Origin: Acaryochloris marina S15
GTDB lineage: Bacteria > Cyanobacteriota > Cyanobacteriia > Thermosynechococcales > Thermosynechococcaceae
DNA: 32,000 nucleotides
Assembly: GCF_018336915.1 (NCBI RefSeq)
Contig: NZ_CP064923.1
Location: 1,590,001 to 1,622,000, forward strand
Reading direction: 5' to 3'
The notes beneath the pieces are model-generated. The model worked only from the letters and a program-made list of their open reading frames with translations. It made no database searches and was not told where the DNA came from. This document shows, one piece after another, positions 8,957 through 29,100 of the stretch. Each line of letters starts with the position of its first letter. The stretch's first letter is position 1. Position numbers and translations under genes: made by a program.

Positions 8957-9002
8957 ATTAACATAAATTGAAACTGCAAATCAGCAGTAACCGAGGGGAA
9001 GC

Positions 9003-9161
9003 ATGCCTGCCGTTGTTTTTATTGTTCTATTGGCAATTAGTATTCAAATCACCAAAATGATGCTGTTTTGGCCCATTGATGCTTTCCATGCTTTGAGTAT
9101 TCCCAAGCTGTTAACTATGGGGCTGATCTTGGGACTATTTTCCTGGTTGTTTGGAGAATAG
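9003..9161 (+). CDS. Small hydrophobic protein (52 aa, two predicted TM helices), below the ORF-track length cut-off
   Basis: ATG at 9003 is preceded by GAGGGGAAGC. Translation: MPAVVFIVLLAISIQITKMMLFWPIDAFHALSIPKLLTMGLILGLFSWLFGE*. It fills the otherwise empty 254-bp gap between the M48 and TPR genes. Confidence 0.35.
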   Translation: MPAVVFIVLLAISIQITKMMLFWPIDAFHALSIPKLLTMGLILGLFSWLFGE

Positions 9162-9210
9162 CAACAAGCTTAGTTTAATGCACAATTACAACAGCTAATA
9201 CAAAAATAAT

Positions 9211-10668
9211 CTATTTTTTTTCTCCTAATCTTTTCTTCTTTAATTCTGAAGATTGGCGATAGAATTCAATGGCTTTCTGGTACTGTCCAAGGGCATCATA
9301 GGTATTTCCCAGGCTATTCAGCGAAGATATTTCAACAGTGTGATTGCCAATTTGTCTTGAAGCTGATAGCGACTGCTGATAATATTCAAGTGCTTTAGGA
9401 TATTGACCTAGTGCATAGGTTGTATTACCTAAATTATGTAAAGAATTTACCGCGATTGTTTGCTCACCCATTTGACGAGCAATAGTTAAGGATTGTTGAT
9501 AATGTTCCAAAGCTTTTTGATATTGACCCAGAGAATATGATGCAAGTCCTAAATTATTGAGAGCCTTTACTTCACTTTCTTGATTGCCAAGCTGACGGAC
9601 GATAGGCAAGGATTGTTGGTAGTATTCCAATGCTTTTTGATGTTGGCCCAAAGAATATGATGCAAGTCCTAAATTATTGAGAGCCTTTACTTCACTTTCT
9701 TGATTATTAAGCTGACGTGTAATCTCTAAAAGGTTTTGGTAGTATGTAATTGATTTTTGGTATTGACCTAACGAGAAAAAAGTATTTCCAATATCATTTA
9801 AAACTTTCGCCTTAGCTTCATTGTTGGCACTGCCAATGAACTCTAATAATTGTTGGTACTGCTCAATTGCCTTTGGAAGTTGACCGACTGAAGTATAAGC
9901 AGTTGCTAGATTGGTGAATAGAATAGTTTTCTGTTCAGTATTATTGTTGTCATTGGTTATGGCGATAAACTGCTCATAGAATTCTATCGCCTTCTGATAT
10001 TTACCCAAGGCATATGCTGAATTTCCCAACTGATTGAGAGCTTGTATTTCAGCCTTGCGATTACCTACTTTTTTCTGAATCTCTAAAGAGCGGAGATAGT
10101 ACTCAAAGGCATCTTGATATCCTTGATTTGCATAAGAAGCATTGCCAAGGTTATTTAAAGCATCAGCCTTAATATTTTTCATGCCAGATTGATTAGCAAT
10201 ACCTAATGATTTTTTATGGTAGTTAATTGCTTTTAGGTATAGCTTTTGAGAGTAATAAGTTGACCCCAGGTTATTAAGTGAACTCGCTTCAGTTTTTTGA
10301 TCGCCAATTTTACGTGCAATCGTTAAGGACTGTTCATAGAGCTGAATAGCTTTCTTGTATTGGCCTAAATTAGAGTATGTAAGCCCCAGATTATTCAGAG
10401 TTTTTAATTCACCGTCATCACTCTTGAGCACCTGGTAGATTTTTAGCGCTTTCAACCAAGACTGCAAGGCAGATTGATACTGACGCACCTCAAACTGCTT
10501 AATTCCTTGCTGAAAAAGGTAATTGGCATTTGAATTTTGTTCACCAGAAGGAATAGCTTGTGATAAAAGAACCTCAGAGCTAGTTGGTTCAGCAGCAACT
10601 CTGCAAGTTAACAGTACAAGCAAAAATGCTGATAGTGCCATGCGGAATAGTCTAAGGCCATAGCTCAT
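9211..10668 (-). CDS. Secreted tetratricopeptide-repeat protein (about 10 consecutive 40-aa TPR units)
   Basis: Repeated pattern ..ALNNLG..Y..LG.Y.KA(I/L)E.Y.QSL.I.R..G.. throughout. Signal-peptide-like MSYGLRLFRMALSAFLLVLLTCRVAAEP from ATG 10668, which has AGGAGA 9 nt upstream. The ORF-track longest start is 10698. Confidence 0.85.
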   Translation of the reverse strand: MSYGLRLFRMALSAFLLVLLTCRVAAEPTSSEVLLSQAIPSGEQNSNANYLFQQGIKQFEVRQYQSALQSWLKALKIYQVLKSDDGELKTLNNLGLTYSNLGQYKKAIQLYEQSLTIARKIGDQKTEASSLNNLGSTYYSQKLYLKAINYHKKSLGIANQSGMKNIKADALNNLGNASYANQGYQDAFEYYLRSLEIQKKVGNRKAEIQALNQLGNSAYALGKYQKAIEFYEQFIAITNDNNNTEQKTILFTNLATAYTSVGQLPKAIEQYQQLLEFIGSANNEAKAKVLNDIGNTFFSLGQYQKSITYYQNLLEITRQLNNQESEVKALNNLGLASYSLGQHQKALEYYQQSLPIVRQLGNQESEVKALNNLGLASYSLGQYQKALEHYQQSLTIARQMGEQTIAVNSLHNLGNTTYALGQYPKALEYYQQSLSASRQIGNHTVEISSLNSLGNTYDALGQYQKAIEFYRQSSELKKKRLGEKK

Positions 10669-11097
10669 TTTTACTGTTCTCCTAAAGCAATCAGTCACAG
10701 TAGTGTTTCTGTACTATTTTATGGGTCTACCTGAACTCCATTCGATATAAACTATCAAGAATTCAATCCAAGATCTTGATATAAAACAATTAAAAAGACA
10801 GCTAAAAAATATCTAGCAAGACTTTATAGAGCCTCTAAATAGTGATTATTTAATGTATTTTTAGGCATAGGCAGAGAAGTTGTGACTATTTATTCGATTT
10901 GAATTAAATAAAATTACATTACTGTATAACTGCTCCTGAAAATTGTCTATAATTCTATTTTGGAGCTTATACATCTTCATCAACACTTATTAGTATTTAC
11001 TAAGATCTGTTGGATTTATTGAAAATTAGCCTGAATGCCGCAAGGTAAACTATAATCTGCATTTGAAAAATGCCCAACTCTATCACTAACTATTTTA

Positions 11098-12906
11098 ATG
11101 ATGTGTTTATCCATATTACCGACAGCACTTCTGGGCATAGTAATTACAGCAACCCAACCTTATGTAATTGCTGCAAACAAACAAGCTGATGTTTACCGCT
11201 TAGCTAAAAAAAGCACCATTCTGGTTGATGGGCAAAATCCTGGCTCCGGCGTAATTATTGGCAAACAAGGAAATAGCTATTTTGTTCTAACTGCTGAACA
11301 TGTTGTTGAAACGGAAGATGAATATGAAATAGTGACACCCGACGGATCAAGATATCGTTTGGATTACAGCTCTGTTAGAAGGTTGCCAAACATTGATCTT
11401 GCTATTGTGTCATTCATCAGTAATAAAAATTACCCTCAAGCTAAACTAGGCAACTCCGATAACGTCACAGAAGGAGACAAAGTATTCATTGCTGGCTGGC
11501 CAGCACCGGGTAAAGCGCTCCCTCACGTCTATCAGATTACAAGTGGAGAAATCTCTGGCATTTGCCCACGCCCTGTTGCTAGAGGCTATCGGTTAATCTA
11601 CACAAATGTTACTCGTGCCGGTATGAGTGGTGGCCCCATTTTTAATGAAGGTGGGGAAGTTATCGGTATTCATGGATTAGCTGAAGGTAGAGAGGTCTAT
11701 CAGTCAGGGTATGAAGAATACCCCATTAAAACTGGATTTAACCTTGGTATTCCGATAAACACATTCTCTAGAGCCGCAAAGCAAGTAGATACCAATATTG
11801 CTCAATTGCCTAGTTCTCCCTCTACACCTCAACAAACAGTTGCGAAGTCGACTCACCTACCGGCAACTTCTAAAGCACCACCAGCTTCCCTACAAACAAC
11901 TGCAAAGCCAGCTCAGCTGCCCGCCGCTACTCCCAAAGCACCACCAGCTCCTCTACAAACAACTACAAAACCAGCTCAGCTACCGGCAACTCCTAAAGCA
12001 CCACCAGCTCCCCTACAAACAACTGCAAAACCAGCTCAGCTGCCCGCTACTACTCCCAAAGCACCACCAGCTCCCCTACAAACAACTGCAAAGCCAGCTC
12101 AGCTGCCCGCTACTACTCCCAAAGCACCACCAGCTCCCCTACAAACAACTGCAAAGCCAGCTCAGCTGCCCGCTACTACTCCCAAAGCACCACCAGTTCC
12201 CCTACAAACAACTGCAAAGCCAGCTCAGTTACCTGCCACTACTCCCAAAGCACCACCAGTTCCCCTACAAACAACTGCAAAGCCAGCTCAGTTACCTGCC
12301 ACTACTCCTAAAGCACCTCCAGCTCCTCTACAAATAACTGCAAAACCAGCTCAGCTACCTACTTCTCCTATAAGTCCTACAACTCAACCTAAATCGACAA
12401 CCAAGTTAGCTGAATTGCTGGATGCTCCCAAAATTCCATCTAAAAACCGTGGCCCTCAAATTTCATTTGCCCAAGCACCTAGATTAGTTCGCTCGCAATC
12501 TACCAGTAAAAATGCGAAAGAATTAGGGGCAACTTACTACTTCACAATTGATGTTCCCGCATCAGCTAACTTACCGCTTCAGCAAATTAACTTAACTCTT
12601 AAACAGGGAGTTGAATATCCACGATTTAAAGCTAGAGCAGTAAATGCTTTTGAGGGTACGCCAAGAAATAAGGGGACAGAATTACCTCTAGGACTTATCG
12701 TTACAGATCCCCCTACCCGGACTCTCACGGTTGTTTTTGACTCACCGGTAGTCCCTGGGAAAGGAGTGACTATCGCTGTTCGACCCGTTAGAAATCCTTC
12801 TGTTGGTACTTATCAATTTGAGGCAACGGCATTTCCAGAAGGAGACACTGCTAAAGGGCAGTTTGCAGGCATTGGAAGATTCGATTTTTACAGAAGCTCC
12901 AAGTAA
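11098..12906 (+). CDS. Secreted trypsin-like (S1) serine protease - proline-rich tandem repeat - DUF2808-like C-terminal domain
   Basis: Signal peptide. Catalytic triad context TAEH68VV / NID100LAIV / GMS177GGP. Eight KAPPAPLQTTAKPAQLPATTP units. The C-terminus (PRLVRS...ATYYFTIDVP...LPLQQINL...AFEGT...VVFDSPVVPGKGVTIAVRPVRNP..G.YQFEATAFPEGD...GIGRFDFY) matches my recollection of the cyanobacterial DUF2808 family. Confidence 0.8.
   Translation: MMCLSILPTALLGIVITATQPYVIAANKQADVYRLAKKSTILVDGQNPGSGVIIGKQGNSYFVLTAEHVVETEDEYEIVTPDGSRYRLDYSSVRRLPNIDLAIVSFISNKNYPQAKLGNSDNVTEGDKVFIAGWPAPGKALPHVYQITSGEISGICPRPVARGYRLIYTNVTRAGMSGGPIFNEGGEVIGIHGLAEGREVYQSGYEEYPIKTGFNLGIPINTFSRAAKQVDTNIAQLPSSPSTPQQTVAKSTHLPATSKAPPASLQTTAKPAQLPAATPKAPPAPLQTTTKPAQLPATPKAPPAPLQTTAKPAQLPATTPKAPPAPLQTTAKPAQLPATTPKAPPAPLQTTAKPAQLPATTPKAPPVPLQTTAKPAQLPATTPKAPPVPLQTTAKPAQLPATTPKAPPAPLQITAKPAQLPTSPISPTTQPKSTTKLAELLDAPKIPSKNRGPQISFAQAPRLVRSQSTSKNAKELGATYYFTIDVPASANLPLQQINLTLKQGVEYPRFKARAVNAFEGTPRNKGTELPLGLIVTDPPTRTLTVVFDSPVVPGKGVTIAVRPVRNPSVGTYQFEATAFPEGDTAKGQFAGIGRFDFYRSSK
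11872..12372 (+). repeat. Coding tandem repeat, 8 units of 63 nt (one of 60 nt)
   Basis: Units start at 11872, 11935, 11995, 12058, 12121, 12184, 12247 and 12310, all in frame. Units 4 and 5 are identical. Units 6 and 7 differ at 1 nt. A degenerate unit precedes at ~11806. Confidence 0.95.
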
Positions 12907-13049: not shown

Positions 13050-13963
13050 GAAGCTGTTTGAAAAGTAAAAAGACAGTCTACCCAGCTTAAGTTTGAGGCT
13101 CTAATCGACGAACCATCAAATGAACCATAGCGGCAAAGATCATCATTTCGCTAGTGGTTGGCAAAAATTCATAATCCTTACTCAAGCGTCGATAATGACC
13201 GAACCAGGCATAGGTGCGTTCGACAACCCAGCGCTTCGGAATGACTGTAAAACCTGGTTCATCGCTGGTGCGTTTGAGGTGCTCTAGTGTCCAACCAAAC
13301 TGCTGGCCAACCCAGGCCATAAAGTCTTTACCTGCAAAGGTACTATCCACCCAAATCACTTGGAGACAACTCCAAAAAGCGGCGTAGAACGTTGCCAGTA
13401 AGGTCATTCCGTCATGGTCAGAACGTTTCGCACTATGGACACAGACCCCCAGCACTAACCCCATCGTATCGACCAAAATGGTGCGTTTGCGTCCTTTGAC
13501 TTTCTTTCCCCCATCAAACCCGATGTCTTGTCCGCCACTGGCAGTCTTGACCGATTGGCTATCGACACTCCCTGCACTGGGGAGTGCATTACGACCTGAT
13601 TGAAGGCGAATCTGTGTGCGCAATGCAGTATTGAGCTTCTCCCAGGTTCCGTCGTCCTCCCAAGCCCGAAAATAGGTGTATGTGCTTTGCCATTTCGGGA
13701 AATCATGGGGCATTGCACGCCACTTAATCCCGTTGGCAACCAAGTAAAAAATCCCATTCAAAACCTCTCGCATATCAATACTGCGCGGGCGTCCACCCGG
13801 TTTGGCATCAGGAATATAGGGTTTTAATATTTCCCACTGGGCATCGGTTAAGTCAGTGTCGTATGCTAGTCGTGTCATTTTGGGGTCTCCTGGTAGACCC
13901 CTTTACCTTAAAACCCCTCTCGATGAGAGATACAAGGGGTAAAACAACTTTTCAAACAGCTTC
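13050..13963 (-). mobile_element. Intact IS5-family insertion sequence (IS427/IS1031-like), 914 bp
   Basis: 17-bp perfect terminal inverted repeats GAAGCTGTTTGAAAAGT (13050-13066) and its reverse complement (13947-13963). These are flanked by a direct TCA duplication (13047-13049 and 13964-13966), the TNA 3-bp target duplication typical of this IS5 subgroup. It encloses one uninterrupted transposase ORF. Confidence 0.9.
13087..13878 (-). CDS. IS5-family DDE transposase (263 aa, single ORF, no frameshift)
   Basis: LTDAQWEILKPYIP...GGRPRSIDMREVLNGIFYLVANGIKWRAMPHDFPKWQSTYTYFRAW N-terminal HTH region. DDE region with VDSQSV..., WVDSTFAG..., VVERTYAWFGHYRRLSKDYE. Confidence 0.92.
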   Translation of the reverse strand: MTRLAYDTDLTDAQWEILKPYIPDAKPGGRPRSIDMREVLNGIFYLVANGIKWRAMPHDFPKWQSTYTYFRAWEDDGTWEKLNTALRTQIRLQSGRNALPSAGSVDSQSVKTASGGQDIGFDGGKKVKGRKRTILVDTMGLVLGVCVHSAKRSDHDGMTLLATFYAAFWSCLQVIWVDSTFAGKDFMAWVGQQFGWTLEHLKRTSDEPGFTVIPKRWVVERTYAWFGHYRRLSKDYEFLPTTSEMMIFAAMVHLMVRRLEPQT

Positions 13964-23981: not shown

Positions 23982-24860
23982 TTAAGGGGATTGCATCCAG
24001 GCCCGAGTGCCAAAGGATTGGCAGGCGGTTGCTGCGACTTGGGCGGCCTGGGCTAGGGCCTGGGGGAAATCGCTATGCAAAATAAAGTGGCAAAAGGCTC
24101 CATGAAAGATATCTCCTGCACCCAAGGTATCAGCGGGGGTAATCTTTGGGACGGGCACAGTACCTGCGGTGCCCTGCCAATAGAGAATAGGCTGATTGCC
24201 TTGGGTGATGGCAATATGACTGGATTTGGGCAGAGTTTGTTTTAAGTAGTCCAGCGTGGCTTGGGTGTTGTGGCAGCCAGGGGGATGGAAATCGGCGGAG
24301 CAAATGGCGTAGTTGATGTAGGGCAGAAGGGTCTCTAGACCAGGTTTCCAGCTGCCACCATCTAAGACGATGGGAATGTTAGTGGCTTGTTGGGCGATGG
24401 CGAGGCTAACGGGGATTTGATGGCCGTCTATCAGAATAATGTCGGTGGTGGTGATTTTTTCCCATAAATCTTGGGGGATTTGGTGGGGCTGGGCGATTTG
24501 GCGCTGGGCATTGAGGGAGATAAGGGCACGTTCTCCTGTGGTTTGGGTGACCACGATGGAAGAGACCGGGGGGGATTGAGTTTGGTCGGGGGTGAGGTCG
24601 GTGAGGATGACGGGTTGCCTGAGACTTTCTAGGTCGGCTCGCATCAGTTGGGTAATGGGATGTTGGCCCAGGGCGGTGAGGAGATGGGCGGTATTGTTGA
24701 GGTGGGCGAAGGCGGCGGCGGCGTTGGTGGCGGGTCCGCCTGCTGAAATTAAGCTGTCTTGGGCGACTAGTTTTTGGTTGGCTTGGGGTGGACCAGAGGC
24801 GAGATAAATCATATCCAGCGTGGATAGTCCGATGAACAATCCTGATTTCTGGCTATCCAT
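23982..24860 (-). CDS. PfkB-family carbohydrate/nucleoside kinase
   Basis: Ribokinase-fold pattern: N-terminal GLSTLDMIY, GGPATNAAAA, and C-terminal ATP/anion-hole motif DTLGAGDIFHGAF. Confidence 0.8.
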   Translation of the reverse strand: MDSQKSGLFIGLSTLDMIYLASGPPQANQKLVAQDSLISAGGPATNAAAAFAHLNNTAHLLTALGQHPITQLMRADLESLRQPVILTDLTPDQTQSPPVSSIVVTQTTGERALISLNAQRQIAQPHQIPQDLWEKITTTDIILIDGHQIPVSLAIAQQATNIPIVLDGGSWKPGLETLLPYINYAICSADFHPPGCHNTQATLDYLKQTLPKSSHIAITQGNQPILYWQGTAGTVPVPKITPADTLGAGDIFHGAFCHFILHSDFPQALAQAAQVAATACQSFGTRAWMQSP

Positions 24861-25072
24861 AACTTGTATAGGCGATAGGCTTTGCTTAAATACGAGGTAA
24901 TTGAGATATCTATCTTCTTTGATTTTATTAGGTTCATTGTGGATTCAGATTTTGGATATCAGCGTTGAAAATTTGAGCATGAAGTAATGAGTGTAAAGGT
25001 TTAAGATTCTGGAGAAATTCATTCCCAACGGCTTCTGTCCTGTTGAAATCAGTAATCAGCTATGATTTGGGC

Positions 25073-25351
25073 ATGGAGTTTGAGTGGAATGATTCCAAAG
25101 CAACGGCCAATCTGAAGAAGCATGGCGTCAGTTTCGAAGAGGCAAAGTCTGTTTTTTACAATGCGCTAGCAATTATTTTTGATGATGAAGCCCACTCAGT
25201 GAGCGAAAAACGAGAGATTCTTGTTGGACATTCTAAAAATAACCGATTACTTTTGGTTTTTTTCACTGAACGCCCCCATGCGATTCGCATTATTAGCGCC
25301 CGTTTAGCTACCCGGAGGGAGCTTGAAGATTATGAAAGACAAAGCTTTTGA
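25073..25351 (+). CDS. brnT: BrnT-family toxin (DUF497 ribonuclease toxin)
   Basis: MEFEWNDSKATANLKKHGVSFEEAKSVFYN...EKREILVGHSKNNRLLLVFFTERPHAIRIISARLATRRE is the canonical BrnT pattern. ATG 25073 is preferred over the track TTG 25043. Confidence 0.85.
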   Translation: MEFEWNDSKATANLKKHGVSFEEAKSVFYNALAIIFDDEAHSVSEKREILVGHSKNNRLLLVFFTERPHAIRIISARLATRRELEDYERQSF

Positions 25352-25565
25352 AGAGTCTAATGACATAAATGATGAACTTCAAGCTGAGTATCAATTAGAT
25401 TATAGAAAGGCTAAACCTAATCGATTTGTAGCCCGTAATGTAGAGCAGCAGCTGAAGGTCGTTGTTTTAGATGATGACGTTGCTCAGGTGTTTAGAACAC
25501 CCGAGTCGGTTAATAATGTGCTGAGAGCATTAATTGATACGATGCCTCAATCAGTAGAGAACTAA
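25332..25565 (+). CDS. brnA: BrnA-type antitoxin (CopG/RHH-like C-terminus)
   Basis: Overlaps the brnT 3' end by 20 nt (ATG 25332; track TTG 25323). Motifs: LDYRKAKPNRF and VVVLDDDVAQVFRTPESVNNVLRALI, typical of BrnA partners. Confidence 0.75.
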   Translation: MKDKAFEESNDINDELQAEYQLDYRKAKPNRFVARNVEQQLKVVVLDDDVAQVFRTPESVNNVLRALIDTMPQSVEN

Positions 25566-25961
25566 ATAACTGGGTTGAGTTATGGGTCTGAATCAATAGG
25601 TTTTTGAAATTGGTTCTCGGGCCTATCGTCGTTTTTGCCAGGGGTATAAACCGAAGCCCAAGCCACCTCAGAAAAGTCATTGGGGAACGAAGTTATTGGC
25701 AAAACTGAAGCTAAAACGGAAACCCCGTAAGCCATCACCGGGACAAACTCGTTTGCCTTGGGATGATTGGGATGGTGTTGATCCAGAGATTCAAGCGGTG
25801 GCAATGAAGTTTGTACTTGCGAATTGCTGGAACCCGGAGGTGGTGAGAACTCGGTATGAACCGAATTTTATCCCGCCATAAGTAAAACAATGGGAGTTGC
25901 GAGGTGCCAGGTAAGGAATCGTTGAAAAGGTGGGTTTTATGTTGATCTGAACGTGGAAATG

Positions 25962-26008
25962 AAATTTAAAAAATGCTTGTAGACTGTCTCGTGCTACAGT
26001 CTACAAGC
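25962..26008 (-). terminator. Rho-independent terminator of the TIR-GUN4 gene
   Basis: Minus strand reads GCTTGTAGACTGT-AGCACGAG-ACAGTCTACAAGC followed by ATTTTTTAAATTT (13-bp perfect stem, 8-nt loop, U-tract). The stop codon TAG (26001-26003) lies inside the stem. Confidence 0.85.
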
Positions 26009-26996
26009 CTTTGTGCGAGAAAATGCCTAAGAAAAGAGATCTTCTTTTTAACGAGAACCCGCCAACAAACCATCTCGGAAATTCTCCGAAGGAAGTTTTT
26101 TGGAGGTCGAAGGTGAGTTGTTTGTAGCCTAACCACTCGCTATTTTTGCGCCAACCGACACGATCGCCGAATTTTTCCCAATCATCATTATAGGTTCTAG
26201 GGCTACCGCATTCTTCCCAAATTCGCTTCTGGACGCTAAAACCCCATTTGCCTTTGCTGTACTTTACCCATAAACGATCCAGTGTTTGCAAATCCTCACA
26301 GAGGAATGTTTTTAGGTCTTTTTCACGAAAGTAGTCTCCTTCTGTTCTCCCCATAATAGTGATCATCAACCGATAGGTTTCTTGATCGGCTTCTTTCCAT
26401 TGCTGGTTTTGTAGTAATTCCTCCAGTTTTTCGTATTTGGGATCAGCAGTAACTTCTTGAGAGTGATCGGAGATGTCCTTGGCAGGTGTTTCGTGCTGAG
26501 CCGTGAGTTTTGTTTGGGCCGACAGGCCGAGTAGGGGGGGTATCCCCTTGATCAGCCTATCCATATCGCGATGAAAATCAGGGTCTCGTCTAATTTGAAT
26601 CCCATTACGATAGATTAAGCTAGATAAACACTCCGGTAACTGAGAGGAGCTAGGCATCGCTGCCCCACTCACTAGAAGCGGAATCACAGGAATATCTCGA
26701 TTTAAGGCAGCTTCAATTTCAATTCTGACAAAATCTTGCTGATTATCAAGCCGTTTGTTGCCATTGCCATCGGCACAATTTACCCATTTTGTGCCAATTA
26801 CAGCCAATAGAATTTGGCATCGACTTACTTCTTCGTTTAGATGCTTGCGAAAGTCCTTGCCTAAGGGAATATCATCCACATCTTTAAATACAGCATCTCC
26901 CCCAAACTCCCCAACGAGCCTGTCATAGATTCTTCCTGTCACATCTGGGCTATCTTCTCTGCGATAAGAGATAAAAATAGAACCTTGGCTAGACAT
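26001..26996 (-). CDS. TIR domain - GUN4 domain fusion protein (331 aa)
   Basis: N-terminus (aa ~5-150): SIFISYRREDSPDVTGRIYDRLVGEFG..VFKDVDDIPLGKDF...ILLAVIGTKW...DFVRIEIEAALNRDIPVIPLLV (TIR_2-type, conserved Glu region). C-terminus (aa ~187-310): YEKLEELLQNQQWKEADQETYRLM...FLCEDLQTLDRLWVKYSKGKWGFSVQKRIW...GDRVGWR...W..YKQLTF (GUN4-like signature). Confidence 0.85.
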   Translation of the reverse strand: MSSQGSIFISYRREDSPDVTGRIYDRLVGEFGGDAVFKDVDDIPLGKDFRKHLNEEVSRCQILLAVIGTKWVNCADGNGNKRLDNQQDFVRIEIEAALNRDIPVIPLLVSGAAMPSSSQLPECLSSLIYRNGIQIRRDPDFHRDMDRLIKGIPPLLGLSAQTKLTAQHETPAKDISDHSQEVTADPKYEKLEELLQNQQWKEADQETYRLMITIMGRTEGDYFREKDLKTFLCEDLQTLDRLWVKYSKGKWGFSVQKRIWEECGSPRTYNDDWEKFGDRVGWRKNSEWLGYKQLTFDLQKTSFGEFPRWFVGGFSLKRRSLFLGIFSHKGL

Positions 26997-27246
26997 AAAT
27001 TACTTGCAGCTAATCCCAGATTGATAAAAAATACTTTGGTGCTAACGCCTTAGATAGATCAAGGTTCACCCTTATCTTTAGCTAGAGACCCATGCTTTAA
27101 GTGTGCAAAAACAATGGAATAAAAACGTATTCTATGTGTCTTCTCAGTATGGCTGAAAGACTGTTTGAAACATTTTAGTTCACGTCTTTTAGATATCTAA
27201 TCTCACCTCATAATTCAATCTCACGCATTATCCAATCTATCAGCAA

Positions 27247-27507
27247 CTATTCAGATTTTTGTGTGAAATACAGATTATTCAAACAATCGAATGCTGCCTC
27301 CATATCGAAAACTAAATCATAGCGGCATAACAGTTGCGCGCTTCCTGAAATAATTCTTCCACCCTCACCATCAGAAAGGATGGCAACCATCACAAACCTG
27401 AGTGCTGAAACCAGCAAGCTACTCAACACTACAAAGTAACCAGAACAATTAAGTCTATTTTGGAAAGGTGCCGTATATTCAGCCACAAAAGCTGACAGCG
27501 CCATCAA
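27247..27507 (-). CDS. Doubtful small ORF (86 aa) in the TIR-GUN4 / HTTM divergent spacer
   Basis: The only ORF over 60 aa in the 540-bp spacer, with a hydrophobic middle segment (YFVVLSSLLVSALRFVMVAIL). No recognisable domain or RBS. It may be spurious. Confidence 0.2.
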   Translation of the reverse strand: MMALSAFVAEYTAPFQNRLNCSGYFVVLSSLLVSALRFVMVAILSDGEGGRIISGSAQLLCRYDLVFDMEAAFDCLNNLYFTQKSE

Positions 27508-27537
27508 AGGGGAACACAGTTACCAACAAACCAACCG

Positions 27538-29100
27538 ATGAGTCCGTTCTCAATCTTCACCATCCTCTACATGACTGCCTTTCTGCTAGAAATGCAGGAA
27601 AAGTGGAAAGCACCAGGCTTTGCCCTCGCCTTTTTAGGCTTAATCACCGTCTTCGTCTGCACCCGAATAACCCGGAGCAAATTTTTTACCTTCCTGGTCC
27701 TCTCCACCGCCTACTTCTTAATTTTTCGCTTCCCCGACGTCGCCAACCACGTCAACTTCCTGATCTACCTCAACCTCACTCTGATAGTGGGTATGGTCTA
27801 CGCCTGGATCAAACAGGCCAGCGCCGACGACTACTACGCCATGATGCGCCCCGCTCTCAGAGCTTCCTTGCTCGGTGTCTATTTCTGGGCCGGATTCCAT
27901 AAACTCAACACCGACTTTCTCAACCCCCAAGTGTCCTGCTCCAGCATGATGCTGTATCGCATTCTGGATATGCTCCAATCCAATCTCTTGGGCATTCCAG
28001 TTATGGTAATTGGGATTGCCCTGGCCCTCTTCGGACTGTGGCAAGGACTCATCCGTCCCAGACTCAAATCCTCAAAACGTCCCAAAATCCTGCTGCTCGC
28101 CTTACTCACCTGTGGCGGTATTCTGCTCTATGCCTTCGGATTTGCCTATCAAGATTACGTCCTGCTACCCGACCTAATCTTGCAAGCCAATATCTACTTT
28201 GTCCTCGCTTGGGAATTGCTGGGGAGTCTCTTGCTGTTTGTGCCCAGATTGCAGGCCCCGATCCTGTTGCTCTCATGGCTGATGCATGGCTTTATCGCCA
28301 TGATTGGCTTCGTCGATTTCAGTGCTCTGGCTGGAAGCTTACTCTTTACCTTTATTCCCGATCGCTACCTGCAGCTTTGGCAAGAACAGTCAGAAATCTC
28401 TCTGGGGGGAAGAAAGATTCATCGGGTACACCTGTACTTTGGCCTCAACGTTATGGCAGGTGTCTTCTCTGCCCTGTATTACCTCGCCTATTTAGAATTC
28501 GATATCAAAGTCACTGCCGGAGCCATCTTCAACCTTGCTTCAGTCATTTTCCTTTGGCCGATTCTCACCCAGCTCTTTACACCTAAAAATCGACCCAATT
28601 GGCAAGGACTTTCCGTTCTCAATAGCTCCATGCCCAAATTTATGGCGGTATTTTTAATTGGCCTCTGCTGTTTCGGCCTCATGCCCTACCTAGGACTCCG
28701 CACTGCTGGAACCTTCTCCATGTTCAGCAATCTCCGCACGGAAGGGTCTCGCTCCAACCATTTACTGCTGGGTAGTAATCCCCTCAAGCGCTGGGGCTAT
28801 CAGGAAGATGTGGTCTGGATTCTGAGCTTGCCGCCAGAGGTGGTGGACATGGATCCGAAAAATGCAGAGCTAGAGGGTAGTGCTCTCCCCGTGGTGGAGT
28901 TCAAGAAAATGATCTATGACTGGACTCAATCGGGGCAGACCGTACCGGTAGTCTTTGAATATCAGGAGCAAATCTACGACAGCCCCAATATTGTTCAGGA
29001 TCCTCAATGGCAAACGCCTCGGCGGAATTGGGAGATGTATTGGATGGATTTTCGAGTGATTGAGCCTGAAAATTCTGGTCCTAATTTATGTCGATGGTAG
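27538..29100 (+). CDS. Polytopic membrane protein, HTTM / vitamin-K-dependent gamma-carboxylase-like
   Basis: About 10 TM helices. GVYFWAGFHKLNTDFLN resembles the VKGC/HTTM motif (I)VYFIAGVKKLDADW. WLMHGFIAMIGFVDFS resembles YFHCMNSQLFSIGMFS. The soluble C-terminal ~110 aa ends in ...LCRW. The family call rests on remembered motifs only. Confidence 0.5.
   Translation: MSPFSIFTILYMTAFLLEMQEKWKAPGFALAFLGLITVFVCTRITRSKFFTFLVLSTAYFLIFRFPDVANHVNFLIYLNLTLIVGMVYAWIKQASADDYYAMMRPALRASLLGVYFWAGFHKLNTDFLNPQVSCSSMMLYRILDMLQSNLLGIPVMVIGIALALFGLWQGLIRPRLKSSKRPKILLLALLTCGGILLYAFGFAYQDYVLLPDLILQANIYFVLAWELLGSLLLFVPRLQAPILLLSWLMHGFIAMIGFVDFSALAGSLLFTFIPDRYLQLWQEQSEISLGGRKIHRVHLYFGLNVMAGVFSALYYLAYLEFDIKVTAGAIFNLASVIFLWPILTQLFTPKNRPNWQGLSVLNSSMPKFMAVFLIGLCCFGLMPYLGLRTAGTFSMFSNLRTEGSRSNHLLLGSNPLKRWGYQEDVVWILSLPPEVVDMDPKNAELEGSALPVVEFKKMIYDWTQSGQTVPVVFEYQEQIYDSPNIVQDPQWQTPRRNWEMYWMDFRVIEPENSGPNLCRW

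Follow-up and report, generated by a model that had tools for sequence, protein, structure and literature searches.

A 32,000-nt stretch of the genome of the cyanobacterium Acaryochloris marina S15 (NZ_CP064923.1, positions 1,590,001 to 1,622,000; hereafter the window, whose own numbering is used throughout) contains an open reading frame (ORF) of 331 aa on the minus strand (26001..26996) that encodes TIR-GUN4, a stand-alone two-domain protein with a SARM1-type TIR domain at its N-terminus and a GUN4-fold domain of the "paralog" clade at its C-terminus. We give slightly better than even credence to the view that TIR-GUN4 is a stand-alone, abortive-infection-type TIR NAD+ hydrolase (NADase) whose sensor is a diversified GUN4-like domain. 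Comparative genomics had already yielded both the fusion and the sensor hypothesis; what is new here is a hypervariable tract at the presumed lid of the GUN4 fold, a conserved 3' element that ends the gene in any of three reading frames, and the partnership of this element with a Y1 transposase-like gene, none of which was found in the literature searched.

The ORF product is 100% identical to a protein recorded at NCBI as "GUN4 domain-containing protein" of Acaryochloris marina. Pfam searches placed TIR_2 (PF13676) on residues 7-147 (26556..26978, minus strand; E=1.1e-11, 45.7 bits against a cut-off of 28) and GUN4 (PF05419) on residues 185-308 (E=2.1e-36, 125.6 bits against a cut-off of 29.2). 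An AlphaFold2 model built from 63 homologues (mean predicted local distance difference test, pLDDT, 85) was confident for both domains, with pLDDT <50 for residues 167-179 of the linker and for the last 20 residues (312-331). In Foldseek, the N-terminal half was superposed on the TIR domain of SARM1 (template modelling (TM) score 0.79-0.85, root-mean-square deviation 2.4-3.1 Å) and the C-terminal half on Arabidopsis and Chlamydomonas GUN4 (7E2R/4YKB; TM 0.69-0.73). An earlier note on this DNA, made from the letters alone, had read the ORF as a TIR_2-GUN4 fusion and had proposed a profile search as a check; with both profiles above their Pfam cut-offs and both folds matched, that reading was borne out. 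The domains are joined by a linker (residues 148-185; 26442..26555, minus strand), and the GUN4-paralog core (residues 186-307; 26076..26441, minus strand), which ends in G-E-F-P, is followed from residue 308 by the hypervariable tract (55 nt; 26021..26075, minus strand).

The TIR half is plausibly an NAD+-cleaving effector, as the earlier note had supposed, judging from a SARM1-type fold in the model and an invariant glutamate in the alignments. Among solved structures, its profile is best matched by SARM1 and C. elegans TIR-1 (E about 1e-8), with which the TIR half shares the FISYRR and D-[WF]-V-x-x-E motifs. E93 (codon 26718..26720, minus strand) is invariant, and E95 nearly so, in an alignment of 22 sequences of the TIR subfamily. 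D88-F-V-R-I-E93 of the window protein pairs with D-W-V-H-K-E of SARM1 in the PDB profile alignment, and by residue count in the 143-residue construct of the printed alignment E93 corresponds to SARM1 E642, the experimentally established catalytic glutamate. E95 pairs with V644 of SARM1 and is therefore not the catalytic residue. Thus the glutamate whose absence had been set beforehand as a possible refutation is present, and of the two candidates offered, E93 and E95, only the former holds.

The TIR subfamily is highly conserved, with 60-68% identity to TIR domains bearing other C-termini in many metagenomes, which fits an enzymatic module that would be under strong constraint and combined with varied C-terminal modules. 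Its partners elsewhere include FGE-sulfatase/C-lectin domains of the type targeted by diversity-generating retroelements (DGRs), YeaQ/YmgE membrane segments, acyl carrier protein and ferredoxin-like domains, many of them in non-cyanobacterial metagenome proteins (P0038-P0040, P0063 and others), for example from Anaerolineales. Unlike SARM1, TIR-GUN4 has no ARM or SAM domain, and therefore its regulation would have to come from the GUN4-like half.

Many bacterial TIR domains are signal generators, and the TIR of the window protein could instead make a cyclic ADP-ribose-type messenger for a separate effector encoded elsewhere, as in Thoeris, without depleting NAD+ itself. We consider this quite improbable. 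TIR-GUN4 resembles Thoeris ThsB and other bacterial defence TIRs in being a TIR effector in a phage-defence-like context, and residues 3-72 gave weak profile matches to ThsB1, SAVED-TIR and ThcB4, but those to ThsB and ThcB4 were far below cut-off (33 bits against 220 for the NCBIfam ThcB4 model), and the closest relatives by both sequence and structure are the SARM1 NADases. No ThsA-type neighbour (SIR2, SLOG or Macro) was found in the window or in 6 related loci, and no conserved partner (SIR2, SLOG, Macro or SAVED) adjoins TIR-GUN4 in five lineages; in contrast to Thoeris, TIR-GUN4 is a single-gene unit with its own fused sensor.

The GUN4 half belongs by its sequence features to the "paralog" clade and would not be a Mg-chelatase cofactor. 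The hydrophobic "palm" was defined in Synechocystis Gun4, where Arg214 is essential for porphyrin binding (Verdecia et al., 2005; PMC1084334), and the LxNxLR motif corresponds to L209-R214, with Asn211 needed for bilin binding (Rockwell et al., 2023). The paralog clade (sll1380-like), loss of which gives no gun4 phenotype, was proposed to have lost bilin binding (Rockwell et al., 2023), and a paralogue without Arg214 was proposed to bind other metabolites (Verdecia et al., 2005). In the window protein, hydrophobic residues are kept at most palm and loop positions (W200, M211, L228, F231, L236, L239, W243, F253, V255, I259, W260, Y269, W273, V280, W282, and W288; HMMER alignment to 1Y6I, mapped by hand), and therefore the ligand may be hydrophobic. 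G304-E-F-P307 corresponds to G205-H-L-P208 of the Synechocystis sequence A-P-Q-G205-H-L-P208-L-L-N211-Q-L-R214-G-V-R-V (PDB), and what follows it is RWFVGGFSLKRRSLFLGIFSHKGL and a stop, starting RWFVGG, with pLDDT <50 and without LxNxLR. Throughout the GUN4-paralog family, the insert starts exactly at the position of LxNxLR. One of the tails behind it, SLAQRLV (frame 1), is similar to LLNQ(L)RGV, so that the tract would be inserted into the α6/α7 lid, as far as can be inferred from sequence; L-x-x-R is encoded in all three frames of the conserved block. TIR-GUN4 thus shares with canonical Gun4 (Synechocystis sll0558; PDB 1Y6I/4XKB/7E2T) the fold (TM ~0.7) and the palm residues up to G-H-L-P, but it lacks the N-terminal helical domain, its LxNxLR is interrupted by a variable insert, and in place of the C-terminal helices it has a short tail whose sequence depends on the frame. 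The comparison with Gun4 structures that the earlier note had suggested therefore gave a mixed answer, in which the fold and, by sequence alignment, the palm are retained and LxNxLR is not.

The same note had seen in the GUN4 module a possible tetrapyrrole sensor. According to this explanation, GUN4 would bind protoporphyrin IX, Mg-protoporphyrin or a bilin freed by photodamage or infection, and would activate the TIR NADase allosterically, as also predicted in the literature (Kaur et al., 2020; Kibby et al., 2022). The retained fold and hydrophobic palm speak for it, as do the Arg in the conserved tail of all three frames (His in the window) and the likeness of SLAQRLV to LLNQ(L)RGV. However, the insert breaks LxNxLR, Asn211 is not kept, the window has His for Arg, and the published proposals are loss of bilin binding for the paralog clade (Rockwell et al., 2023) and the binding of other metabolites for a paralogue without Arg214 (Verdecia et al., 2005). 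In addition, one conserved small-molecule ligand leaves the lid differences between near-identical paralogues, described below, unexplained. Palm retention is thus as the claim would have it, but with a hypervariable insert in the place of LxNxLR, tetrapyrrole sensing by this GUN4 half appears doubtful, and we regard a tetrapyrrole-gated NADase as unlikely.

In the homologues, the GUN4 core is followed by a stretch of very variable length and sequence and then by one of three tails, SLAQRLVxCS..., LFSRAxTCxL-stop, or L[LF]SRxDL-stop. In the window, the three tails are encoded by the same DNA in three frames, the third of which is used by the gene (IFSHKGL-stop). Among four Acaryochloris strains, the DNA is conserved up to the GEFP codons and again from CTCTTTTCTCGC..., while the G/T-rich, indel-rich 33-55 nt between them differ in length and sequence despite flanks that are ~87-94% identical. 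Across 89 instances, the tract (from G[HE][LF]P to the motif of the conserved element) has a median of 62 nt and a range of 29-~120 nt, with lengths spread evenly over the three values modulo 3 (29/28/32). Its base content (A 16%, C 14%, G 35%, T 35%) departs from that of the gene body (30/21/25/24), runs of at least four G or T are enriched 7-fold and 3-fold, respectively, and the three codon positions are alike (A.15, C.11, G.41, T.33), in contrast to the usual position-specific bias of the GUN4 body next to it. Only 3 of 78 distinct tracts contain an in-frame stop. In the two unused frames, 34 and 36 tracts do, and composition-matched shuffles gave 40±3.7 (1000 rounds, minimum 28). In-frame stops are thus strongly purged, and therefore the tract is translated and its read-through selected. 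The encoded peptides are rich in Gly, Leu, Val, Phe, Trp, Arg, and Ser.

The tract also differs within single genomes. Tandem paralogues of Lyngbya PCC 8106 have a ~40-nt tract without similarity between flanks that are ~95% identical by eye (88% for the whole block in blastn), and many within-genome pairs show an alignment gap from about -100 to -8 relative to the motif. The frame differences are not assembly errors, because independent assemblies yield the same sequences. A frameshifted pseudogene was rejected on this ground and because the stop offset of the window gene, 17, is used by 31 of 90 family members. A sorting signal or tail anchor like PEP-CTERM, suggested by the layout of motif, hydrophobic stretch and basic residues, was set aside, since many tracts contain charged residues and the tract has no codon structure. 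The partner domains TIR, NACHT, caspase, and kinase are cytosolic, which is a further ground against a sorting signal. A search for a template unit found no dominant repeat or k-mer in the tracts, and a templated repeat unit was rejected accordingly. Some duplications were seen besides. Four loci (L049, L092, L040, and L060) have tracts in which the 5' part of the conserved block is partly duplicated, TTCTCTTCTCTCGCGCAAAGACTTGGTAGACTGTAGCATGAG ahead of the real motif being one example, which gives the impression that the boundary was copied repeatedly. The 3' module, that is, the last ~130-170 nt of GUN4 coding sequence with tract and element, is duplicated in tandem or in part in L059 (7579, 7837), L067 (1352, 2772; Arthrospira platensis PCC 7345), and L032 (Lyngbya PCC 8106), with a different tract in each copy; the short ones may represent fragments of genes or silent cassettes.

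The layout resembles that of the DGR-diversified C-type-lectin (FGS) regions of cyanobacterial kinase, caspase, and TIR genes, in which a hypervariable binding segment at the 3' end is likewise followed by a conserved cis element, and the TIR subtype of the window protein is also found fused to FGE domains. The tract is nevertheless not a DGR variable region. Its length varies and indels dominate, its bias is toward G and T and not one of adenine-specific substitution, and the neighborhoods inspected showed neither a template repeat nor, among their called genes, a reverse transcriptase.

Behind the tract, the DNA itself is conserved. The 3' element of the window (25903..26028, minus strand; DNA alignments and genome scan) contains block 1, which has stops in three frames, a hairpin with a T-run, ATCAACATAA, and CCTGGCACC. 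In an alignment of 88 sequences, conservation extends ~125 nt past the tract through block 1, a variable segment, a T-rich run, and CG[AT]TACCTGGCAC, and nearly all synonymous sites of the element core are identical in loci whose proteins are only ~45% identical. A 27-nt degenerate pattern scanned over 596 Gb of representative genomes found 86 loci, all cyanobacterial and from many orders, with ~4 chance matches estimated on the assumption of equal base frequencies. In 82 of 90 instances the element ends an ORF matching the GUN4 hidden Markov model, and most of the others are cut by contig ends. The three frames are used equally, with 31 stops at offset 17, 28 at offset 24, and 29 at offset 31 or beyond. 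Since the pattern overlaps the gene end, its confinement to GUN4 genes was to be expected; what was not is that the DNA is conserved at the nucleotide level and yet indifferent to reading frame.

The hairpin of the element (25965..26008, minus strand; 13 bp, stem 26008-25975) is followed by a T-run and is terminator-like; the TAG stop lies within the stem, which is imperfect in sister strains. The earlier note had taken the gene for an independent unit with a strong terminator of its own. The hairpin and T-run are there, but they are not private to the gene, because they lie within the element (26028-25903) shared at the 3' ends of GUN4-paralog genes across cyanobacteria. An Rfam gathering scan, run on the window and 7 loci, matched no known RNA family to the element, and no consensus structure emerged from RNAalifold on the 88-sequence MAFFT alignment, a weak negative as the alignment is gappy. 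A local repeat or miniature inverted-repeat transposable element was also rejected, as the hairpin occurs once in the window, and the motif was not found in viral contigs.

Convergent to TIR-GUN4, at 25600..25878 on the plus strand, lies the remnant of a Y1 HUH transposase gene (aa 167-259, 89% identity in tblastn, of which A. marina NIES-2412 has a full copy) that resembles the REP (repetitive extragenic palindrome)-associated tyrosine transposases (RAYTs) and is truncated where the block with the BrnT toxin gene starts. A Y1 gene or remnant is located downstream in 41 of 98 motif instances (81 of which have at least 600 nt available), always convergent and usually ending 114-226 nt from the motif start. 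An early impression that this association was Acaryochloris-specific, based on 4 distant loci without Y1, was overturned by larger locus sets. In the reverse test, 36 of 51 metagenomic Y1 loci (71%) with at least 600 nt past the stop face a GUN4 ORF, as do, by our count, 27 of 32 among the closer relatives, the exceptions having no common alternative partner. The Y1 gene and element were not found behind a TIR-FGE gene in the one locus family inspected. In one genome, -8 to +594 (motif, element, and Y1) is the only segment alignable between two loci, and therefore motif, element, and Y1 behave as a unit.

The 13 full-length Y1 copies are 64-74% identical, and H60/H62 (HUH) and Y122 (the Tyr) are invariant in them. 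Their best NCBIfam model is that of REP-associated tyrosine transposase, at 66 bits against a cut-off of 80 (21 against 55 for the IS200 model), and the NHVH, WE, and YIHANP motifs fit subclass 2.1 of class 2 RAYTs, for which neither REPs nor function are known (Quentin et al., 2018). With these motifs, ~255 aa, and the best-scoring model, the proteins are like RAYT/TnpA-REP enzymes; they differ in a score under the cut-off and in conserved DNA that lies on one side only and is confined to GUN4 3' ends instead of being dispersed in the genome. IS200/IS605 elements are marked by two defined ends bearing subterminal hairpins and by near-identical copies at sites unrelated to one another, and REPs by hairpins on both sides and dispersed copies. 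Neither set of features was found; the motif occurs only at GUN4 3' ends and in one copy in the window. An autonomous insertion sequence with two ends was rejected because no block of conservation precedes the Y1 start. No report of RAYT-like genes tied to one specific protein-coding gene family was found in the literature searched.

The 3' module might be only the footprint of a selfish Y1 element (IS200/RAYT-like) that targets the 3' ends of GUN4-paralog genes. In that case the G/T-rich tract would be a junction or spacer without a sensor role, tolerated because stops in all frames come with the element, and the GUN4 core alone would work. In its favor, motif, element, and Y1 form a repeated unit that ends at -8 to -4 relative to the motif, about half of the loci have an intact or decayed Y1, the 5' end of the element is partly duplicated in some tracts, and the Y1 family lies within the transposase superfamily. 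On the other hand, no conserved second end is found upstream of Y1, whose 64-74% identity across genera with intact catalytic motifs is more like that of a maintained host gene; the element is kept at the nucleotide level in loci without Y1; the purging of in-frame stops points to a translated tract with selected read-through; and the motif is absent from every non-GUN4 site in the 596 Gb. On balance, this does not seem to us a probable explanation of the tract, and it is in any case compatible with the reading of the TIR as an effector.

Diversification of the tract might proceed by replication slippage together with selection, by gene conversion among paralogues, or through the activity of the Y1 enzyme. 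A bolder proposal, to which we give only tentative and rather low credence, is that the GUN4-paralog sensors of cyanobacterial immune-type proteins (NACHT, caspase, kinase, and TIR) carry a dedicated diversification cassette that is free of reverse transcriptase. In it, a RAYT-like HUH enzyme would, in cis or in trans and together with the conserved ~130-nt element, rewrite the G/T-rich lid tract repeatedly, while the element would let the gene terminate correctly in any reading frame.

The effector half appears to be exchangeable at the locus. Two other Acaryochloris assemblies have 75-76% identical TIR-GUN4 genes in the same neighborhood, in which the order is a gene for an MFS transporter, one for a 509-520-aa membrane protein, the gene in question, a toxin-antitoxin (TA) pair, and genes for a PfkB kinase, an AmiA-like amidase, and a Cu/Zn superoxide dismutase. 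In A. marina NIES-2412, the same slot holds ORF135 and a caspase-GUN4 gene, followed by the full-length Y1 gene and by a Gp49/HTH_3 TA pair in place of BrnT. The blastn comparison of the window with this strain gave a mosaic: 32000-27441 is colinear (91.5% identity); 27440-26475 is replaced; 26474-25604, with the GUN4 domain, 3' element, and Y1 end, is shared (87%); 25603-24845 is replaced; and colinearity resumes from 24844. The first strain-variable block (26475..27440; blastn and gene table) thus comprises the upstream spacer, TIR, and linker of the window, against ORF135, caspase, and linker in NIES-2412, with the break in homology at about residue 174 (boundary at 26474), and the second (24845..25603) comprises BrnT and its partner, against the 5' part of Y1 and the Gp49/HTH_3 pair. 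The locus is therefore a small recombination hotspot at which effector and TA module are exchanged and the GUN4 module stays. Less closely related TIR-GUN4 genes (41-47% identity) stand alone, with no partner conserved next to them, and they neighbor VapBC, HicAB, HepT/MNT, or DUF433 TA modules, transposases, and NACHT-TPR and CHAT-TPR genes.

The N-terminal partners of 74 motif-bearing GUN4 genes are NACHT (19), caspase (12), kinase (10), and TIR_2 (9, plus one ThsB-type TIR), and more rarely AAA_35, KAP, CHAT, NB-ARC, FGE, and cNMP-binding domains; a GUN4 module on NACHT, caspase, kinase, and TIR proteins fits sensor-effector conflict proteins. TIR+GUN4 accounts for 25 of the best 120 protein clusters, from Acaryochloris, Nodosilinea, and marine or mat metagenomes. 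GUN4-paralog domains were found on 44 cyanobacterial plasmids, 19 of them conjugative.

A housekeeping regulator of chlorophyll biosynthesis, in which the GUN4 domain would act on Mg-chelatase and the TIR would be a mere interaction module, is hard to credit in view of these data. The GUN4 family profile match and the metabolic genes around are what it has in its favor. Against it, the gene is not conserved at the locus within the genus, where a caspase takes the place of the TIR; its GUN4 domain is of the paralog clade and lacks the ortholog motif; the catalytic glutamate is strictly conserved; and the GUN4 module is also found on NACHT, caspase, and kinase proteins and on plasmids. The earlier note had named a syntenic core-genome gene as a finding that would go against its proposal, and the caspase-GUN4 gene at the same locus of the other strain, together with the paralogues on plasmids, speaks otherwise.

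The idea of a TIR-GUN4 sensor, for which the earlier note knew no precedent, is in fact a published prediction. The TIR fusion was listed, and tetrapyrrole binding by GUN4 proposed to regulate fused enzymes allosterically, by Kaur et al. (2020; PMC7159879); the same was proposed for STAND/NACHT proteins (Kaur, Burroughs, Iyer, and Aravind, 2021), and GUN4 on NACHT proteins was proposed to monitor virally induced changes in photosynthesis (Kibby et al., 2022). TIR-GUN4 is of one architecture class, with one sensor-effector logic, with the kinase-, caspase-, trypsin-, TIR-, and NACHT-GUN4 proteins described there, and our census recovers the same partner domains; the difference is that GUN4 is read in those papers as a tetrapyrrole sensor, and no hypervariable insert, 3' element, or transposase is mentioned. 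No experimental work on any GUN4-fused conflict protein was found in the literature searched.

The PADLOC model for PD-T4-6 (PDLC04062) matches the window protein with E=8e-38, but this match covers only model positions 292-431 and lies on the GUN4 half. The kinase part of the model (the N-terminal ~290 positions) is unmatched, and the window protein has no kinase Pfam match; we therefore take the match as a property of the model. Its C-terminal ~140 positions match GUN4 domains as strongly as does the Pfam GUN4 model, and therefore PADLOC is likely to over-call PD-T4-6 in cyanobacteria. E. coli PD-T4-6 as a true GUN4-containing relative was rejected, as the GUN4 domain was found in no phage record and on no non-cyanobacterial plasmid. 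"PD-T4-6" calls in S. thermophilus are PASTA kinases.

Taken as a one-gene sensor-effector of abortive infection or conflict, TIR-GUN4 would work as follows. The GUN4-like module would be the sensor, with a rapidly diversifying binding surface and a ligand that is probably variable; ligand binding would relieve auto-inhibition or drive TIR-TIR assembly; and the activated TIR would hydrolyze NAD+, leading to cell arrest or death. The effector half would be exchangeable, with TIR in the window strain and caspase in the other strain at the same locus. A hypervariable insert in the ligand-contact loop, with a conserved DNA element and a transposase-like gene behind it, suggests a diversified immune receptor more than a simple sensor of chlorophyll precursors.

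Several points weigh against this reading. The NADase activity, sensor role, and toxicity of TIR-GUN4 are all things that we infer, and PADLOC and NCBIfam gave no convincing defence-system assignment of the window protein. The locus is a small variable spot and not a large defence island, because the window is otherwise mostly housekeeping (RuvC, LepA, porin, transporters, and hydrolases). The L-x-x-R/H tail is kept in all frames and the palm is conserved, and thus a tetrapyrrole ligand is possible; His stands for the usual Arg in the window tail (IFSHKGL). The tract could also be a functionless, frameshift-tolerant spacer, as the purging of stops shows that read-through matters, not binding. 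Finally, the G+T content of the tract is 0.76 in loci with an intact Y1, with a remnant, and with none (p=0.76), so that a cis effect of an intact Y1 on the "freshness" of the tract was rejected and a cis-linked Y1 activity is not supported.

The upstream spacer, given as about 540 bp in the earlier note, measures 541 bp (26997..27537; ORF map) and separates TIR-GUN4 from a divergent gene on the plus strand (27538-29100) for a 520-aa multi-pass membrane protein, which has no Pfam, NCBIfam, or PADLOC family match (only VKOR at E=0.07) and is conserved beside the variable slot in 4 of 4 Acaryochloris strains. On the other side, the note had recognized a BrnT/BrnA pair. BrnT was confirmed (25043..25351, plus strand; PF04365, E=2.8e-27), but the 80-aa ORF that overlaps its end (25323..25565, plus strand) is an antitoxin by position only, with no Pfam, NCBIfam, or PADLOC match even at E<=10. 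A syntenic 77-aa ORF in L003 likewise has no Pfam match on record. Elsewhere in the window, a segment of low GC content (9001-11000; 0.35-0.36) with a gene for a 495-aa TPR protein (9211-10698) and an IS4/5-family transposase gene (13087-13878) may be part of another acquired segment; between them is a gene for a trypsin-DUF2808 protein (11098-12906).

GUN4 fusions are currently read as tetrapyrrole sensors, whereas the ligand-contact motif is here replaced by the tract with the fastest turnover around; given the lid, the three-frame element, and the Y1 partnership, the GUN4 module should therefore be read differently. TIR-GUN4 is a tractable test case for the prediction published in 2020, and if its TIR is an NADase switched by the GUN4-like half, it would give a phylum of ecological importance a compact abortive-infection system made of one gene. 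The tract and its element may show with unusual clarity how frameshift-robust coding occurs in nature under diversifying selection or, alternatively, may be the signature of a new mechanism of targeted hypervariation tied to orphan HUH enzymes (RAYT subclass 2.1). A diversification cassette, if it exists, would be a functional analogue of DGRs or of V(D)J junctional diversity in generating receptor variation.

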